The notes under the pieces were generated by a model that did no database searches, had not been told where the DNA came from, and was given only the letters and a program-made list of their open reading frames with translations. From a virus (Duplodnaviria > Heunggongvirae > Uroviricota > Caudoviricetes): DNA of 8,372 bases. Positions within the stretch are counted from its first letter, which is position 1; every line of letters starts with the position of its first letter. The translations under genes were made by a program, and so were the position numbers. Positions 1,418 to 6,735 of the stretch are shown piece by piece. The stretch lies in the IMG/VR virus record IMGVR_UViG_2648501110_000007; one strand, given 5' to 3'.

Positions 1418-1857
1418 ATTTTGCCCTCAGACTGGCGCGTGAGATGGGGAGGCCTGACTGGCGCGCCATGCTTGCCGGGATGACATCCACCGAATATGCC
1501 GACTGGCGACATTTTTACCGCATGCATTATTTTCACGATACCCAGCTGGATATGCATTTTTCCGGGCTGACGTACGCTGTACTCAGCCTGTTTTTTTGCG
1601 ATCCGGATATGCATCCCTCTGATTTCAGTCTGCTTGTCCCCCGGCATGAGGAAGAGCAGGTGGAGAGGCCGGATGAGGACAAAATGCTGATGCAGAAAGC
1701 GGCAGGACTTGCCGGAGGCGTCCGGTTCGGTGGGGACGGAGGGCGCGATATTTTATCGTCTGCGGATGTGGCGGATGTCATGGTGGATGATGCCGCATTA
1801 ATGATGGCTTCAGCGGGGATTTCCGGAGGTGTGAGATATGTCCCAGCCGGTTGGTGA
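986..1857 (+). CDS. T: Tail assembly chaperone G-T fusion, made by programmed -1 ribosomal frameshift at the slippery heptamer GGGAAAG (1393-1399); the T-frame portion runs 1399-1857
   Basis: G_GGA_AAG sits in the G zero frame 6 codons before the G stop. The -1 frame is open from 1399 (VFDGELNFALRLAREMGRPDWRAMLAGM...) to TGA 1855-1857 and matches lambda gpT. The ORF-track entry 1444..1857 is the 3' part of this frame. This mirrors the established lambda G/GT frameshift. Confidence 0.85.
1393..1399 (+). other. -1 programmed frameshift slippery site (GGGAAAG)
   Basis: Heptamer in the correct register (codons GGA AAG in the G frame), with the T frame open downstream. Confidence 0.8.
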
Positions 1858-4417
1858 TCTTGTTATTGACCTTAGTCTGGATGCGGTCCGTTTCGATGAG
1901 CAGATGAGCCGGGTAAGGCGTCATTTTTCAGGTCTGGATACCGACGCCAGAAAAACCGCCAGTGCTGTTGAACAGGGCCTGAGCCGCCAGGCGCTGGCTG
2001 CACAAAAAGCCGGGATTTCCGTCGGGCAGTATAAAGCGGCCATGCGAACCCTGCCCGCACAGTTTACGGATATCGCCACGCAGCTTGCCGGTGGTCAGAA
2101 TCCCTGGCTGATCCTGCTGCAACAGGGCGGTCAGGTGAAGGACTCCTTCGGCGGGATGATCCCCATGTTCAGGGGGCTTGCCGGTGCGATCACCCTGCCG
2201 ATGGTCGGGGTCACCTCGCTGGCGGTGGCGACAGGTGCGCTGGCGTACGCCTGGTACCAGGGGGATTCCACGCTTTCAGCGTTTAATAAAACCCTGGTTC
2301 TTTCCGGTAATCAGTCCGGACTGACTGCCGATCGCATGCTGACGCTCTCCAGAGCCGGACAGGCCGCAGGGCTGACGTTTAACCAGGCGAGTGAGTCACT
2401 GGCAGCCCTGGTGAATGCCGGTGTGCGTGGTGGTGAACAGTTTGATGCCATCAACCAGAGTGTCGCGCGTTTTGCTTCTGCATCCGGTGTGGAGGTGGAC
2501 AAGGTTGCAGAGGCTTTCGGAAAACTGACCACCGACCCGACGTCGGGGCTGATGGCGATGGCGCGCCAGTTCCGTAACGTGACGGCAGAGCAGATTGCGT
2601 ATGTTGCGCAGCTGCAGCGTTCCGGTGATGAGGCCGGGGCCTTACAGGCGGCGAACGATATCGCCACGAAAGGCTTTGATGAGCAGACCCGTCGCCTGAA
2701 AGAAAACATGGGGACACTGGAGACCTGGGCGGATAAAACCGGGAAGGCATTCAAATCGATGTGGGATGCCATTCTGGATATCGGTCGTCCTGAGTCCTCA
2801 GCGGATATGCTCGCCAGTGCGCAGAAGGCATTTGATGAGGCGGATAAAAAATGGCAGTGGTACCAGAGCCGGAGCCAGCGCCGCGGTAAAACCTCTTCTT
2901 TCCGGGCCAACCTTCAGGGCGCATGGAATGACCGGGAAAATGCCCGGCTGGGGCTGGCAGCGGCCACGCTGCAGTCGGATATGGAAAAAGCCGGTGAACT
3001 GGCCGCCAGGGACCGGGCCGAACGGGACGCATCACAGCTGAAGTATACCGGAGAGGCGCAGAAGGGGTATGAGCGTCTGCTGACGTCGCTGGAGAAATAT
3101 ACCGCCCGTCAGGAAGAACTGAATAAGGCCCTGAAAGACGGGAAAATCCTGCAGGCGGATTACAACACGCTGATGGCGGCGGCGAAAAAGGATTATGAAT
3201 CGACGCTGAAAAAGCCGAAGTCGTCAGGAGTCAAAGTGTCAGCCGGTGAGCGTCAGGAAGACCAGGCGCATGCTGCCCTGCTGGCGCTTGAAACCGAGCT
3301 CCGGACGCTGGAAAAACACAGCGGTGCGAATGAGAAAATCAGCCAGCAGCGTCGCGATTTATGGAAAGCGGAAAATCAGTATGCGGTCCTGAAAGAGGCA
3401 GCCACGAAACGGCAGTTATCTGAGCAGGAAAAATCCCTGCTGACCCATGAGAAAGAGACGCTGGAGTACAAACGCCAGCTGGCTGAGCTGGGAGACAAAG
3501 TTGAACACCAGAAACGGCTGAATGAGCTGGCACAGCAGGCTGCGCGGTTTGAGCAGCAGCAGGGCGCGAAGCAGGCGGCAATCAGTGCCCAGGCGCGGGG
3601 CCTCACCGACCGTCAGGCGCAGTGGGAGTCGGAAGAGCAGCACCTTCGTGACGTGTACGGTGATAATCCGGATGCGCTGGCGAAGGCCACATCTGCACTG
3701 AAGAACACCTGGTCTGCGGAGGAGCAGCTTCGTGGAAGCTGGATGGCCGGTCTGAAGTCCGGCTGGGGCGAGTGGGCAGAAAGTGCGACGGACAGTTTTT
3801 CGCAGGTTAAAAGCGTGGCCACGCAGACCTTTGACGGTATTGCACAGAATATGGCAGCGATGCTGACCGGCAGTGAGCAGAACTGGCGCAGCTTCACCCG
3901 TTCCGTGCTGTCCATGATGACAGAAATTCTGCTTAAGCAGGCAATGGTGGGGATTGTCGGGAGTATCGGTAGCGCCATTGGCGGGGCTGTTGGTGGCGGC
4001 GCATCCGCATCAGGCGGTACAGCCATTCAGGCAGCTGCGGCGAAATTCCATTTTGCGACCGGAGGATTTACGGGAACCGGCGGCAAATATGAGCCAGCGG
4101 GGATTGTTCACCGTGGTGAGTTTGTCTTCACGAAGGAGGCAACCAGCCGGATTGGCGTGGGGAATCTTTACCGGCTTATGCGCGGCTATGCCACCGGCGG
4201 TTATGTCGGTACACCGGGCAGTCTGGCGGACAGCCGGTCGCAGGCGTCCGGGAAGTTTGAGCAGAATAACCATGTGGTGATTAACAACGACGGCACGAAC
4301 GGGCAGATAGGACCACAGGCGCTGAAGGCGGTGTATGACATGGCCCGCAAGGGTGCCCGTGATGAAATTCAGACACAGATGCGTGATGGTGGCCTGTTCT
4401 CCGGAGGTGGACGATGA
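1838..4417 (+). CDS. H: Tail tape measure protein H
   Basis: 859-aa ORF. N-terminal ~300 aa and C-terminal ~350 aa are very similar to lambda gpH (e.g. PVGDLV.DLSLDA.RFDEQM.RVRRHFSG, FTRSVLSMMTEILLKQAMVGIVGSIGSAIGGAVGGGASASGG, GQIGP.ALKAVYDMARKGARDEIQTQMRDGGLFSGGGR). Central region is long, charged and helical. GGAGG lies 8 nt before ATG 1838. Start overlaps the T-frame end. Confidence 0.96.
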   Translation: MSQPVGDLVIDLSLDAVRFDEQMSRVRRHFSGLDTDARKTASAVEQGLSRQALAAQKAGISVGQYKAAMRTLPAQFTDIATQLAGGQNPWLILLQQGGQVKDSFGGMIPMFRGLAGAITLPMVGVTSLAVATGALAYAWYQGDSTLSAFNKTLVLSGNQSGLTADRMLTLSRAGQAAGLTFNQASESLAALVNAGVRGGEQFDAINQSVARFASASGVEVDKVAEAFGKLTTDPTSGLMAMARQFRNVTAEQIAYVAQLQRSGDEAGALQAANDIATKGFDEQTRRLKENMGTLETWADKTGKAFKSMWDAILDIGRPESSADMLASAQKAFDEADKKWQWYQSRSQRRGKTSSFRANLQGAWNDRENARLGLAAATLQSDMEKAGELAARDRAERDASQLKYTGEAQKGYERLLTSLEKYTARQEELNKALKDGKILQADYNTLMAAAKKDYESTLKKPKSSGVKVSAGERQEDQAHAALLALETELRTLEKHSGANEKISQQRRDLWKAENQYAVLKEAATKRQLSEQEKSLLTHEKETLEYKRQLAELGDKVEHQKRLNELAQQAARFEQQQGAKQAAISAQARGLTDRQAQWESEEQHLRDVYGDNPDALAKATSALKNTWSAEEQLRGSWMAGLKSGWGEWAESATDSFSQVKSVATQTFDGIAQNMAAMLTGSEQNWRSFTRSVLSMMTEILLKQAMVGIVGSIGSAIGGAVGGGASASGGTAIQAAAAKFHFATGGFTGTGGKYEPAGIVHRGEFVFTKEATSRIGVGNLYRLMRGYATGGYVGTPGSLADSRSQASGKFEQNNHVVINNDGTNGQIGPQALKAVYDMARKGARDEIQTQMRDGGLFSGGGR

Positions 4418-4743
4418 AAACCTTCCGCTGGAAAGTGAAACCCGGGATGGATGTGACATCGGCCCCTTCCGTAAGAAAGGTGCGCTTTGGTGATGGCTAT
4501 TCCCAGCGAGCGCCTGCCGGGCTGAATGCCAACCTGAAAACGTACAGCGTGACGCTTTCTGTCCCCCGCGAGGAGGCCACGGCACTGGAGTCGTTTCTGG
4601 AAGAGCACGGGGGCTGGAAAGCCTTTCTGTGGACGCCGCCTTATGACTGGCGGCAGATAAAGGTGACCTGCGCAAAATGGACATCGCGGGTCAGTATGCT
4701 ACGTGTTGAGTTCAGCGCAGAGTTTGAACAGGTGGTGAACTGA
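4414..4743 (+). CDS. M: Tail tip assembly protein M
   Basis: 109-aa ORF nearly identical to lambda gpM (MKTFRWKVKPGMDV...RVEFSAEFEQVVN). ATGA overlap with the H stop. Confidence 0.95.
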   Translation: MKTFRWKVKPGMDVTSAPSVRKVRFGDGYSQRAPAGLNANLKTYSVTLSVPREEATALESFLEEHGGWKAFLWTPPYDWRQIKVTCAKWTSRVSMLRVEFSAEFEQVVN

Positions 4744-5441
4744 TGCAGGATATCCGGCAGGAAACACTGAATGAATGCACCCGTGCGGAGCAGTCGGCCA
4801 GCGTGGTGCTCTGGGAAATCGACCTGACAGAGGTCGGTGGAGAACGTTATTTTTTCTGTAATGAGCAGAACGAAAAAGGTGAGCCGGTCACCTGGCAGGG
4901 GCGACAGTATCAGCCGTATCCCATTCAGGGGAGCGGTTTTGAACTGAATGGCAAAGGCACCAGTACGCGCCCCACGCTGACGGTTTCTAACCTGTACGGT
5001 ATGGTCACCGGGATGGCGGAAGATATGCAGAGTCTGGTCGGCGGAACGGTGGTCCGGCGTAAGGTTTACGCCCGTTTTCTGGATGCGGTGAACTTCGTCA
5101 ACGGAAACAGTTACGCCGATCCGGAGCAGGAGGTGATCAGCCGCTGGCGCATCGAGCAGTGCAGCGAACTGAGCGCGGTGAGTGCCTCTTTTGTACTGTC
5201 CACGCCGACGGAAACGGACGGTGCCGTTTTTCCGGGGCGCATCATGCTGGCCAACACCTGCACCTGGACCTATCGCGGTGACGAGTGCGGTTATCACGGT
5301 CCGGCGGTCGCGGATGAATATGATCAGCCGACGTCCGATATCACGAAGGATAAATGCAGCAAATGCCTGAGCGGCTGTAAGTTTCGCAATAACGTCGGCA
5401 ACTTTGGCGGCTTCCTTTCCATTAACAAACTTTCGCAGTGA
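4743..5441 (+). CDS. L: Tail tip assembly protein L (C-terminal cysteine cluster, Fe-S binding)
   Basis: 232-aa ORF nearly identical to lambda gpL. TGATG overlap with the M stop. C-terminal Cys pattern C-x-W-x5-E-C ... C-x2-C-x3-C, which in lambda gpL ligates an iron-sulfur cluster. Confidence 0.95.
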   Translation: MQDIRQETLNECTRAEQSASVVLWEIDLTEVGGERYFFCNEQNEKGEPVTWQGRQYQPYPIQGSGFELNGKGTSTRPTLTVSNLYGMVTGMAEDMQSLVGGTVVRRKVYARFLDAVNFVNGNSYADPEQEVISRWRIEQCSELSAVSASFVLSTPTETDGAVFPGRIMLANTCTWTYRGDECGYHGPAVADEYDQPTSDITKDKCSKCLSGCKFRNNVGNFGGFLSINKLSQ

Positions 5442-5446
5442 ATCCC

Positions 5447-6190
5447 ATGACAGAGACAGAATCAGCGATTCTGGCGCACGCCCGGCGATGTGCGCCAGCG
5501 GAGTCGTGCGGCTTCGTGGTGAGAACACCGGAGGGGGAAAGATATTTTCCCTGCGTGAATATCTCTGGTGAGCCGGAGGCGTATTTCCGGATGTCGCCGG
5601 AGGACTGGCTGAGTGCAGAAATGCAGGGAGAGATTGTGGCGCTGGTCCACAGCCACCCCGGTGGTCTGCCCTGGCTGAGTGAGGCCGACCGGCGGCTGCA
5701 GGTGCAGAGTGATTTGCCGTGGTGGCTGGTCTGCCGGGGGGCGATTCATAAATTCCGCTGTGTGCCGCATCTCACCGGGCGGCGCTTTGAGCACGGGGTG
5801 ACGGACTGTTACACGCTGTTCCGGGACGCTTACCATCTGGCGGGAATTGAGATGCCGGATTTTCATCGCGGGGATGACTGGTGGCGTCACGGCCAGAATC
5901 TCTATCTGGATAATATGGAGGCAACGGGGTTGTATCAGGTGCCGTTGTCAGCGGCCCAGCCGGGCGATGTGCTGCTGTGCTGTTTTGGTTCATCGGTGCC
6001 GAATCATGCCGCCATTTACTGTGGCGACGGCGAGCTGCTGCACCATATTCCTGAACAACTGAGTAAACGAGAGAGGTACACCGACAAATGGCAGCGACGC
6101 ACACACTCCCTCTGGCGTCACCGGGCATGGCACGCATCTGCCTTTACGGGGATTTGCAACGATTTGGTCGCCGTATCGACCTTCGTGTGA
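5447..6190 (+). CDS. K: Tail tip assembly protein K, two-domain: N-terminal JAB/MPN (JAMM) domain plus C-terminal NlpC/P60-like domain. Start uncertain (GTG 5438, ATG 5447, or internal ATG 5591 as in the classical lambda annotation).
   Basis: ORF is open from the L stop to 6190. JAMM motif H-S-H-x7-S-x2-D at 5648-5686 with an upstream E-x-C-G (5501-5512). NlpC/P60-like Cys in GVTDCYTLF (5807-5809) and His in NHAAIYCG. Internal ATG 5591 has GGAGG 11 nt upstream and corresponds to the classical 199-aa lambda K start. Confidence 0.85.
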   Translation: MTETESAILAHARRCAPAESCGFVVRTPEGERYFPCVNISGEPEAYFRMSPEDWLSAEMQGEIVALVHSHPGGLPWLSEADRRLQVQSDLPWWLVCRGAIHKFRCVPHLTGRRFEHGVTDCYTLFRDAYHLAGIEMPDFHRGDDWWRHGQNLYLDNMEATGLYQVPLSAAQPGDVLLCCFGSSVPNHAAIYCGDGELLHHIPEQLSKRERYTDKWQRRTHSLWRHRAWHASAFTGICNDLVAVSTFV

Positions 6191-6735
6191 AAACGGGGGC
6201 TGAAGCCATCCGGGCACTGGCCACACAGCTCCCGGTGTTTCGTCAGAAACTGAATGAGGGCTGGTATCAGGTGCGCATTGCCGGGCGTGATGCAGGCGAA
6301 AACGAATTATCTGCCCGTCTTAATGAGCCGCTGGCAAATGGTGCCGTGATCCACATCGTACCGCGTCTGGCGGGAGCTAAAAGTGGCGGTGTGTTTCAGG
6401 TGGTGCTTGGGGCGGCGCTGATTGCGGTGGCATGGTGGAACCCTGTGGGCTGGCTGGGGGCCGCGGCTGTATCGGGCATGTATGCGGCAGGGGCCAGTAT
6501 GATCCTGGGCGGAGTGGCGCAGATGCTGGCACCGAAAGCCAGGACGCCCACGGCAGCCAGTACAGATAACGGCAAACAGAACACCTATTTCTCCTCACTG
6601 GATAACATGGTTGCCCAGGGCAATGTTCTGCCTGTTCTGTACGGTGAAATGCGCGTGGGGTCACGTGTGGTTTCTCAGGAGATCAGCACGGCAGACGAAG
6701 GGGATGGTGGTCAGGTTGTGGTGATTGGTCGCTGA
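6088..6735 (+). CDS. I: Tail tip assembly protein I (N-terminal ubiquitin-like/beta-grasp domain)
   Basis: 215-aa ORF similar to lambda gpI at both ends (MAATHTLPLASPGMARICLYGDLQRFGRRIDLRV... and ...NGKQNTYFSSLDNMVAQGNVLPVLYGEMRVGSRVVSQEISTADEGDGGQVVVIGR). Starts 103 nt inside the 3' end of K in another frame, as in lambda. GAGAGG upstream. Confidence 0.92.
   Translation: MAATHTLPLASPGMARICLYGDLQRFGRRIDLRVKTGAEAIRALATQLPVFRQKLNEGWYQVRIAGRDAGENELSARLNEPLANGAVIHIVPRLAGAKSGGVFQVVLGAALIAVAWWNPVGWLGAAAVSGMYAAGASMILGGVAQMLAPKARTPTAASTDNGKQNTYFSSLDNMVAQGNVLPVLYGEMRVGSRVVSQEISTADEGDGGQVVVIGR

Follow-up and report, generated by a model that had tools for sequence, protein, structure and literature searches.

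[quoted passage not shown]

We analyzed an 8,372-nucleotide stretch of phage DNA (hereafter the window) and found that its gene K is best explained, with high confidence, as encoding a single 247-aa, two-peptidase protein that starts at ATG 5447 and is a probable tail-tip maturation peptidase, the shorter 199-aa form being an annotation artefact. On the sequence evidence, the N-terminal half of K is a complete, predicted JAB/JAMM zinc metallopeptidase domain (E19, H68, H70, S78, and D81). The 199-aa K known from phage lambda is the artefact of a one-base omission and is neither a biological short form nor the result of a programmed frameshift. The long form of K is already known, and its finding in the window re-derives it correctly. 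What is added here is the explicit demonstration that the omission of one base truncates the reference lambda K.

The window, 8.4 kb long, comprises the tail genes of a lambdoid phage or prophage. They run in the order V (220-972), G (986-1417, followed by the T frame), H (1838-4417), M (4414-4743), L, K, and I, followed by the start of J. Gene L (4743..5441, plus strand; stop TGA at 5439-5441) encodes a minor tail/hub protein of 232 aa that scores 337.6 bits against Pfam Phage_tail_L. Full-length K (5447..6190, plus strand) comprises 247 codons and the stop TGA at 6188-6190, with the JAB/JAMM domain followed by the NlpC/P60 domain, and gene I (6088..6735, plus strand), which encodes ubiquitin-like N-terminal and plug domains, overlaps the end of K in another frame. 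The region around K is 97% identical to phage mEp460 and ~96% identical to lambda, and both the gene position and the identity (96% to lambda over L-K-I) place K as the lambda gpK/TAPK tail-tip assembly protein. Elsewhere in the window, gene G contains the slippery heptamer G GGA AAG in phase at 1393-1399, with the T ORF (1444-1857) downstream in the -1 frame, so that the classical programmed frameshift producing gpG/gpGT is conserved.

The case for the long form begins with the N-terminal 48 codons of K (5447..5590, plus strand), which are absent from the classical 199-aa lambda K and contribute a helix (residues 3-15) and two strands (residues 21-27 and 30-36) to the JAB fold. When the two forms were compared with the Pfam Prok-JAB profile (PF14464; gathering cut-off, 25 bits), only the long one passed the threshold: the 247-aa form scored 51.8 bits over profile positions 4-103 of 114, whereas the 199-aa form scored 22.7 bits over positions 64-103 only. 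Furthermore, the 48-residue extension by itself matched profile positions 3-41 (E = 3.5e-5). The JAMM motif, E-xn-H-S/T-H-x7-S-x2-D, was defined with AfJAMM residues E22, H67, H69, S77, and D80, the Glu being the general acid-base catalyst (PMC300881); it is complete in the 247-aa form, and its Glu is missing from the 199-aa form. The E-x-C-G element that the initial annotation had located at 5501-5512 (plus strand) is indeed present as E19-S-C-G22, and conservation and the motif definition point to E19 as the predicted catalytic Glu, equivalent to AfJAMM E22. The zinc-ligand part of the motif, H68-S-H70-x7-S78-x2-D81, was likewise recovered by motif and conservation, although its true span is 5648..5689 (plus strand) and the end given earlier, 5686, fell one codon short. 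A start at 5591 would, as had been argued, remove part of the fold, since the 199-aa form is without the Glu and a third of the JAB fold.

Structural comparisons point in the same direction. The solved JAB-like structure 2kks matches K by sequence over residues 7-105. An AF2 model of K had a mean pLDDT of 86 (93-95 over residues 1-40), and its top PDB match in Foldseek was P. furiosus JAMM1 (5ld9; E = 2.4e-5, TM(target) 0.66, 108 aligned columns, rmsd 2.4), with Rpn11, CSN5, and 2kks also matching the N-terminal half. Judged by the model and these matches, K is predicted to have the MPN fold.

Is the open frame upstream of 5591 more than an accident? Searching 1.84 billion cluster representatives (50%-identity) exhaustively with HMMER yielded 2,751 K relatives, and the distant set examined here comprised 98 full-length representatives (215-290 aa) with less than 62% identity to the query. 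The extension was present in all 98, with every alignment starting at query residue 19 or earlier (median 5.5). E19 was kept in 97 of these proteins, G22, N38, H68, H70, and D81 in every one, and S78 in 91, with Thr in six more. The N-terminal part is also conserved at the protein level in loci of 48-50% identity from Phytobacter, Atlantibacter, Rahnella, Erwinia, Hafnia, Enterobacter, Pantoea, and Pseudocitrobacter, and likewise in a Xanthomonas K locus of 44% identity. For pairs with unsaturated dS, the Nei-Gojobori dN/dS of codons 2-48 was 0.08-0.46, compared with 0.10-0.18 for the rest of K, the extension being somewhat higher in several pairs. These values indicate that the extension encodes protein and is under purifying selection, if a little more weakly constrained than the remainder of K. 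By the profile match, the dN/dS, and the alignment in 98/98 representatives, the open frame is more than chance. Of the two alternatives put forward initially, the one in which the long form is the real product has held up: profile coverage, motif, structure model, conservation, and RefSeq annotation agree.

Two further observations concern K and its homologues. Cysteines C15 (5489-5491), C21 (5507-5509), and C36 (5552-5554) lie in the K extension; beyond the JAMM motif, C21 is kept in 92/98 and C36 in 62/98 distant homologues, and N38 is invariant. A structural disulfide and a metal site are both possibilities for the conserved cysteines, and AfJAMM carries a disulfide elsewhere in the fold (PMC300881). 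In addition, at three loci in the E. coli ECMA0423 and Shigella SFBU1023 chromosomes (L056, L057, and L061), K aligns to lambda with 41-71 gap openings over 2 kb, which looks like uncorrected long-read indel error and not real pseudogenization.

The C-terminal half of K carries an NlpC/P60 (C40) papain-like peptidase domain (residues 111-224; 5777..6118, plus strand). Pfam NLPC_P60 (PF00877; cut-off, 23 bits) matched K with 47.8 bits over its full length (profile positions 1-105 of 105). The predicted catalytic residues C121 (5807-5809), H187 (6005-6007), and H199 (6041-6043), all on the plus strand, are each kept in 97/98 representatives, and the profile match together with the conserved Cys-His-His triad assigns K to the NlpC/P60 family. 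Foldseek also matched this half to the NlpC/P60 catalytic domains of MepS and of the C. difficile autolysin Acd.

Where does K start? Read directly from the sequence, the frame of K continues uninterrupted from the L stop to TGA 6188-6190, and the arrangement described in the initial annotation is all there: the L-K junction (5438..5449, plus strand) consists of GTG 5438-5440 overlapping the L stop (GTGA), a 5-nt spacer, and ATG 5447. The sizes given at that stage need a slight correction. The open upstream frame, put at about 50 codons, counts exactly 48 from the ATG, and the product from ATG 5447 is 247 aa long, not 248, while a start at GTG 5438 would give 250 aa. GTG 5438 was considered as the K start and rejected because it is not conserved; it occurs only where the L stop is TGA, and in lambda and mEp460, where that stop is TAA, the codon reads GTA. 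The mEp460 record, the re-sequenced lambda PV340536, and the PGAP annotation of E. coli all start K at the equivalent of ATG 5447, and in several distant enterobacterial loci, the stop of the L homologue overlaps the K start ATG as TGATG. On this comparison of sequences, the conserved start of K is ATG 5447, not GTG 5438. The anti-SD pairing upstream of ATG 5447 is -0.5 kcal/mol, i.e., there is no recognizable Shine-Dalgarno, and a search of the L-K junction for a promoter or terminator found none. Because ATG 5447 is without a Shine-Dalgarno of its own, K is probably translated by the re-initiation of ribosomes terminating on L. Ribosomes finishing L would re-initiate 5 bases on, at ATG 5447, and would produce K as one 247-aa protein with two peptidase domains.

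Could the internal ATG give rise to a second product? ATG 5591 (Met49), together with GGAGG at 5575-5579 (the pair spanning 5575..5593, plus strand), is, as the initial annotation had recognized, the classical start of the 199-aa lambda K. If both were used, a full-length JAB + NlpC/P60 protein would be accompanied by a 199-aa, NlpC/P60-only isoform, and the strong anti-SD match before ATG 5591 (-9.5 kcal/mol) and the retention of GGAGG + ATG in most members of the close lambda clade speak for this. However, the spacing of 10-11 nt between GGAGG and the ATG exceeds the 3-6 nt of the other tail genes in the window, and GGAGG is explained by the codons of the conserved P-E-A/E residues. The pair was found only in the close lambda clade, farther homologues having neither element, and even nearby the two elements occur separately: loci L024 (CTG) and L032 (ATC) of the close clade keep GGAGG without a start codon, and Citrobacter homologues keep the Met without GGAGG. 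Among the 98 distant representatives, residue 49 is Met in 12, Ile in 65, Leu in 13, and Val in 5, so that I, L, or V stands there in 83. Moreover, the short product would, in the structure model, carry a broken half JAB domain. The proposal that both forms are made is therefore without comparative support, and we consider two isoforms improbable. A conserved second K product is not supported, while some leaky initiation may occur in lambda-clade phages.

It is more improbable still that only the classical 199-aa K is made, with the upstream 48 codons forming an untranslated spacer that is open by chance. A spacer of that kind would have to match the Prok-JAB profile on its own, be under purifying selection, house a near-invariant predicted catalytic Glu, and, in the model, fold as the core of the JAB domain. 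The presence of a Shine-Dalgarno before ATG 5591, with none recognizable before ATG 5447, would suit this reading, as would the historical lambda annotation copied into the DE3 and lambda imm21 records, but that annotation was based on a frame-shifted sequence.

The single 247-aa K is consistent with what we found at the reference sequence itself. The 1982 lambda reference, J02459/NC_001416, is without one G (window position 5581, lambda ~14266) just upstream of the internal ATG; at the junction, the reference reads GGAGGC-TATTTCCGTATG and the window reads GGAGGCGTATTTCCGGATG. One extra G is the sole difference from NC_001416 over the 230-nt junction in four independent records of lambda or its derivatives (PV340536, lambda imm21 OM418625, DE3 EU078592, and KT232076). 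A 41-nt probe without the G matched four records (J02459, NC_001416, one UNVERIFIED record, and one isolate with reference-identical coordinates), and the probe with the G matched 64 phage records. Among 5,426 complete E. coli genomes, the version without the G had no match, and the version with it was present at 5,242 places in 3,453 genomes, in features named C40 family peptidase.

Furthermore, a scan of one genome per species revealed ~25 low-coverage lambda contigs in assemblies of unrelated bacteria, all of which carry the G, and nine of these contigs are identical to the reference over the 2016-nt L-K-I region save for that single gap. The contigs are evidently laboratory or spike-in contamination and serve as independent re-sequencings of lambda. 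The contaminated assemblies include Pseudomonas, Shewanella, Neobacillus, Chromatium, Bradyrhizobium, Leeuwenhoekiella, and Kitasatospora (loci L011, L013-L022, L019, L030, L031, L033, L034, and others), and some of the contigs are ~48.4-48.5 kb long. A G insertion at 14266 is presumably also listed in a commercial supplier's lambda sequence notes.

The omission explains the history of the shorter K. Without the G, the first 45 codons run into the wrong frame and stop, and in NC_001416 the N-terminal part appears as a separate 76-codon ORF overlapping the K start. With the N-terminal 48 codons thus out of frame, the 1982 annotators took the next ATG with GGAGG before it. The identification of ATG 5591 as the origin of the classical annotation stands, but the start was not a free choice, as the reference sequence was frame-shifted by the missing G. 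That the gap is real in lambda, with K produced through a programmed +1/-1 ribosomal frameshift or consisting of two separate polypeptides, has a negligible chance of being right, since, for all that lambda does have programmed frameshifting in G/T and that the 76-codon ORF overlaps the K start, the G is in every independent lambda sequence examined (PV340536, LC730321, KT232076, the imm21/imm434 hybrids, DE3, and more than nine contaminant contigs), the remaining records without it are the UNVERIFIED one and the one with reference-identical coordinates, and the complete E. coli genomes hold no such copy. As a candidate site for a programmed frameshift in K, GGGAAAG at 5535 was rejected; its phase is wrong, and a count of two such heptamers in the window is no more than chance would give (64/200 shuffles).

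The two forms of K coexist in the databases. In the E. coli genomes of RefSeq, the long CDS is the one called by PGAP (WP_000194779; 744 nt, its start 5 nt beyond L), and it is also called in mEp460, re-sequenced lambda, and many phage records. Other records that contain the G copy the 199-aa annotation (DE3, lambda imm21), and one has a 211-aa form. In the protein collection, clusters of 242-249 aa hold ~54,000 member sequences compared with ~11,000 in the 199-aa clusters, and about one fifth of the automated gene calls pick the 199-aa form. The UniProt entry for lambda K is, we assume, the one of 199 aa.

In the literature, lambda K was listed among the JAMM proteins in 2003 (PMC300881), and an article of 2006, with reference to 2003 work, described the JAB + NlpC/P60 architecture of K-family proteins (PMC1779556). 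A 2020 review treated gpK as 'residues 52-182 out of 199', with one peptidase domain only (PMC7291167). Our literature search, which was of partial coverage, found no paper stating the K start site or the missing base. The significance of the result is mainly one of curation: the most-used lambda entries, J02459/NC_001416, carry the truncated K, and analyses relying on them see the NlpC/P60 domain only. For expressing, modeling, or mutating gpK, the 247-aa form is the appropriate one. For the window itself, nothing is new, as current pipelines already call the long CDS.

What might a protein with these two domains do during tail assembly? gpK is required for tail assembly and was not found in lambda virions by mass spectrometry or cryo-EM. 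Its absence from virions makes the role of a virion-borne cell-wall hydrolase unlikely, and gpK probably targets a protein of the tail tip under assembly. By analogy with other JAMM enzymes, and in line with an earlier prediction, K probably acts in tail-tip assembly as a non-structural maturation peptidase. A published prediction names the ubiquitin-like domain of gpI as the target of processing by K (PMC1779556), and gpI is resolved in the lambda tip only from residue 135. [quoted passage not shown] Against cleavage of gpI by K stands the finding that, in E. coli producing the F-pyocin gpI homologue by itself, host proteases took off the N-terminal region of that protein.

The most likely substrate of K would be the ubiquitin-like N-terminal domain of gpI, which in the window ends ...PRLAGAKSGG, and we infer that the full JAMM active site agrees with the removal of this domain by K, as predicted in 2006. 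More tentatively, and with somewhat less than even confidence, we suggest from these analogies that the intact JAMM domain may be the protease of a tail-tip proteolytic checkpoint, cleaving the gpI ubiquitin-like domain after the conserved ...AGAKSGG so that the tip accepts the tape measure and the tube. If true, virion assembly would include a deubiquitinase-like step encoded by the phage and carried out by a JAMM domain that is invisible in the reference 199-aa entry. It is in testing the processing of the gpI ubiquitin-like domain by K that the long form matters most, because the short form is without the catalytic Glu and a third of the JAB fold.

Gene I has an annotation problem opposite to that of K. 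The K/I overlap (6088-6190) contains candidate I starts at 6088, 6127, and 6187. In diverged homologues, I starts at the equivalent of ATG 6127, 57 nt ahead of the K stop. Members of the lambda clade possess, besides this codon, ATG 6088, which is the classical I start and has a Shine-Dalgarno, whereas PGAP, mEp460, and PV340536 start I at GTG 6187. Pfam Lambda_tail_I matches gene I with 85.6 bits, the match beginning at residue 14, which corresponds to ATG 6127. A start at GTG 6187 cuts 20-33 residues off the ubiquitin-like domain, as a result of which the Lambda_tail_I match begins only at profile position 26.

Among known systems, the closest is lambda gpK itself (tail tip assembly protein K; TAPK family, Iyer, Burroughs and Aravind 2006). 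The window K shares 96% amino acid identity with the K of re-sequenced lambda over all 247 residues, and the two have the same L-K-I-J order, the same JAB + NlpC/P60 architecture, and the same overlap of K with gene I. The lambda reference entry NP_040598 (199 aa) differs from the window K only through the truncation caused by the 1-nt omission. Unlike lambda, the window has a TGA as the L stop, which creates the extra, non-conserved GTG at 5438.

The N-terminal half resembles the prokaryotic JAMM/MPN+ peptidases that remove ubiquitin-like proteins (AfJAMM; P. furiosus JAMM1, 5ld9/5lda; Haloferax desampylase), with which K shares the same complete motif at near-AfJAMM spacing. PfJAMM1, which removes the ubiquitin-like SAMP2, is the best structural match of the K model, and desampylase gives a weak NCBIfam match over K residues 3-114. 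On the other hand, K is fused to a C-terminal NlpC/P60 domain and lies in a phage tail module without an E1-like partner, and its activity is a predicted one. With the E. coli MepS-type C40 peptidases, K shares the full PF00877 profile, the Cys-His-His triad, and the fold, but it differs from these hydrolases in that gpK is not in virions. Finally, the gpK homologue PA0639 of the F-pyocin, which is a tailocin and not a phage, is an essential non-structural tip maturation factor, to which the window K can be likened by description.
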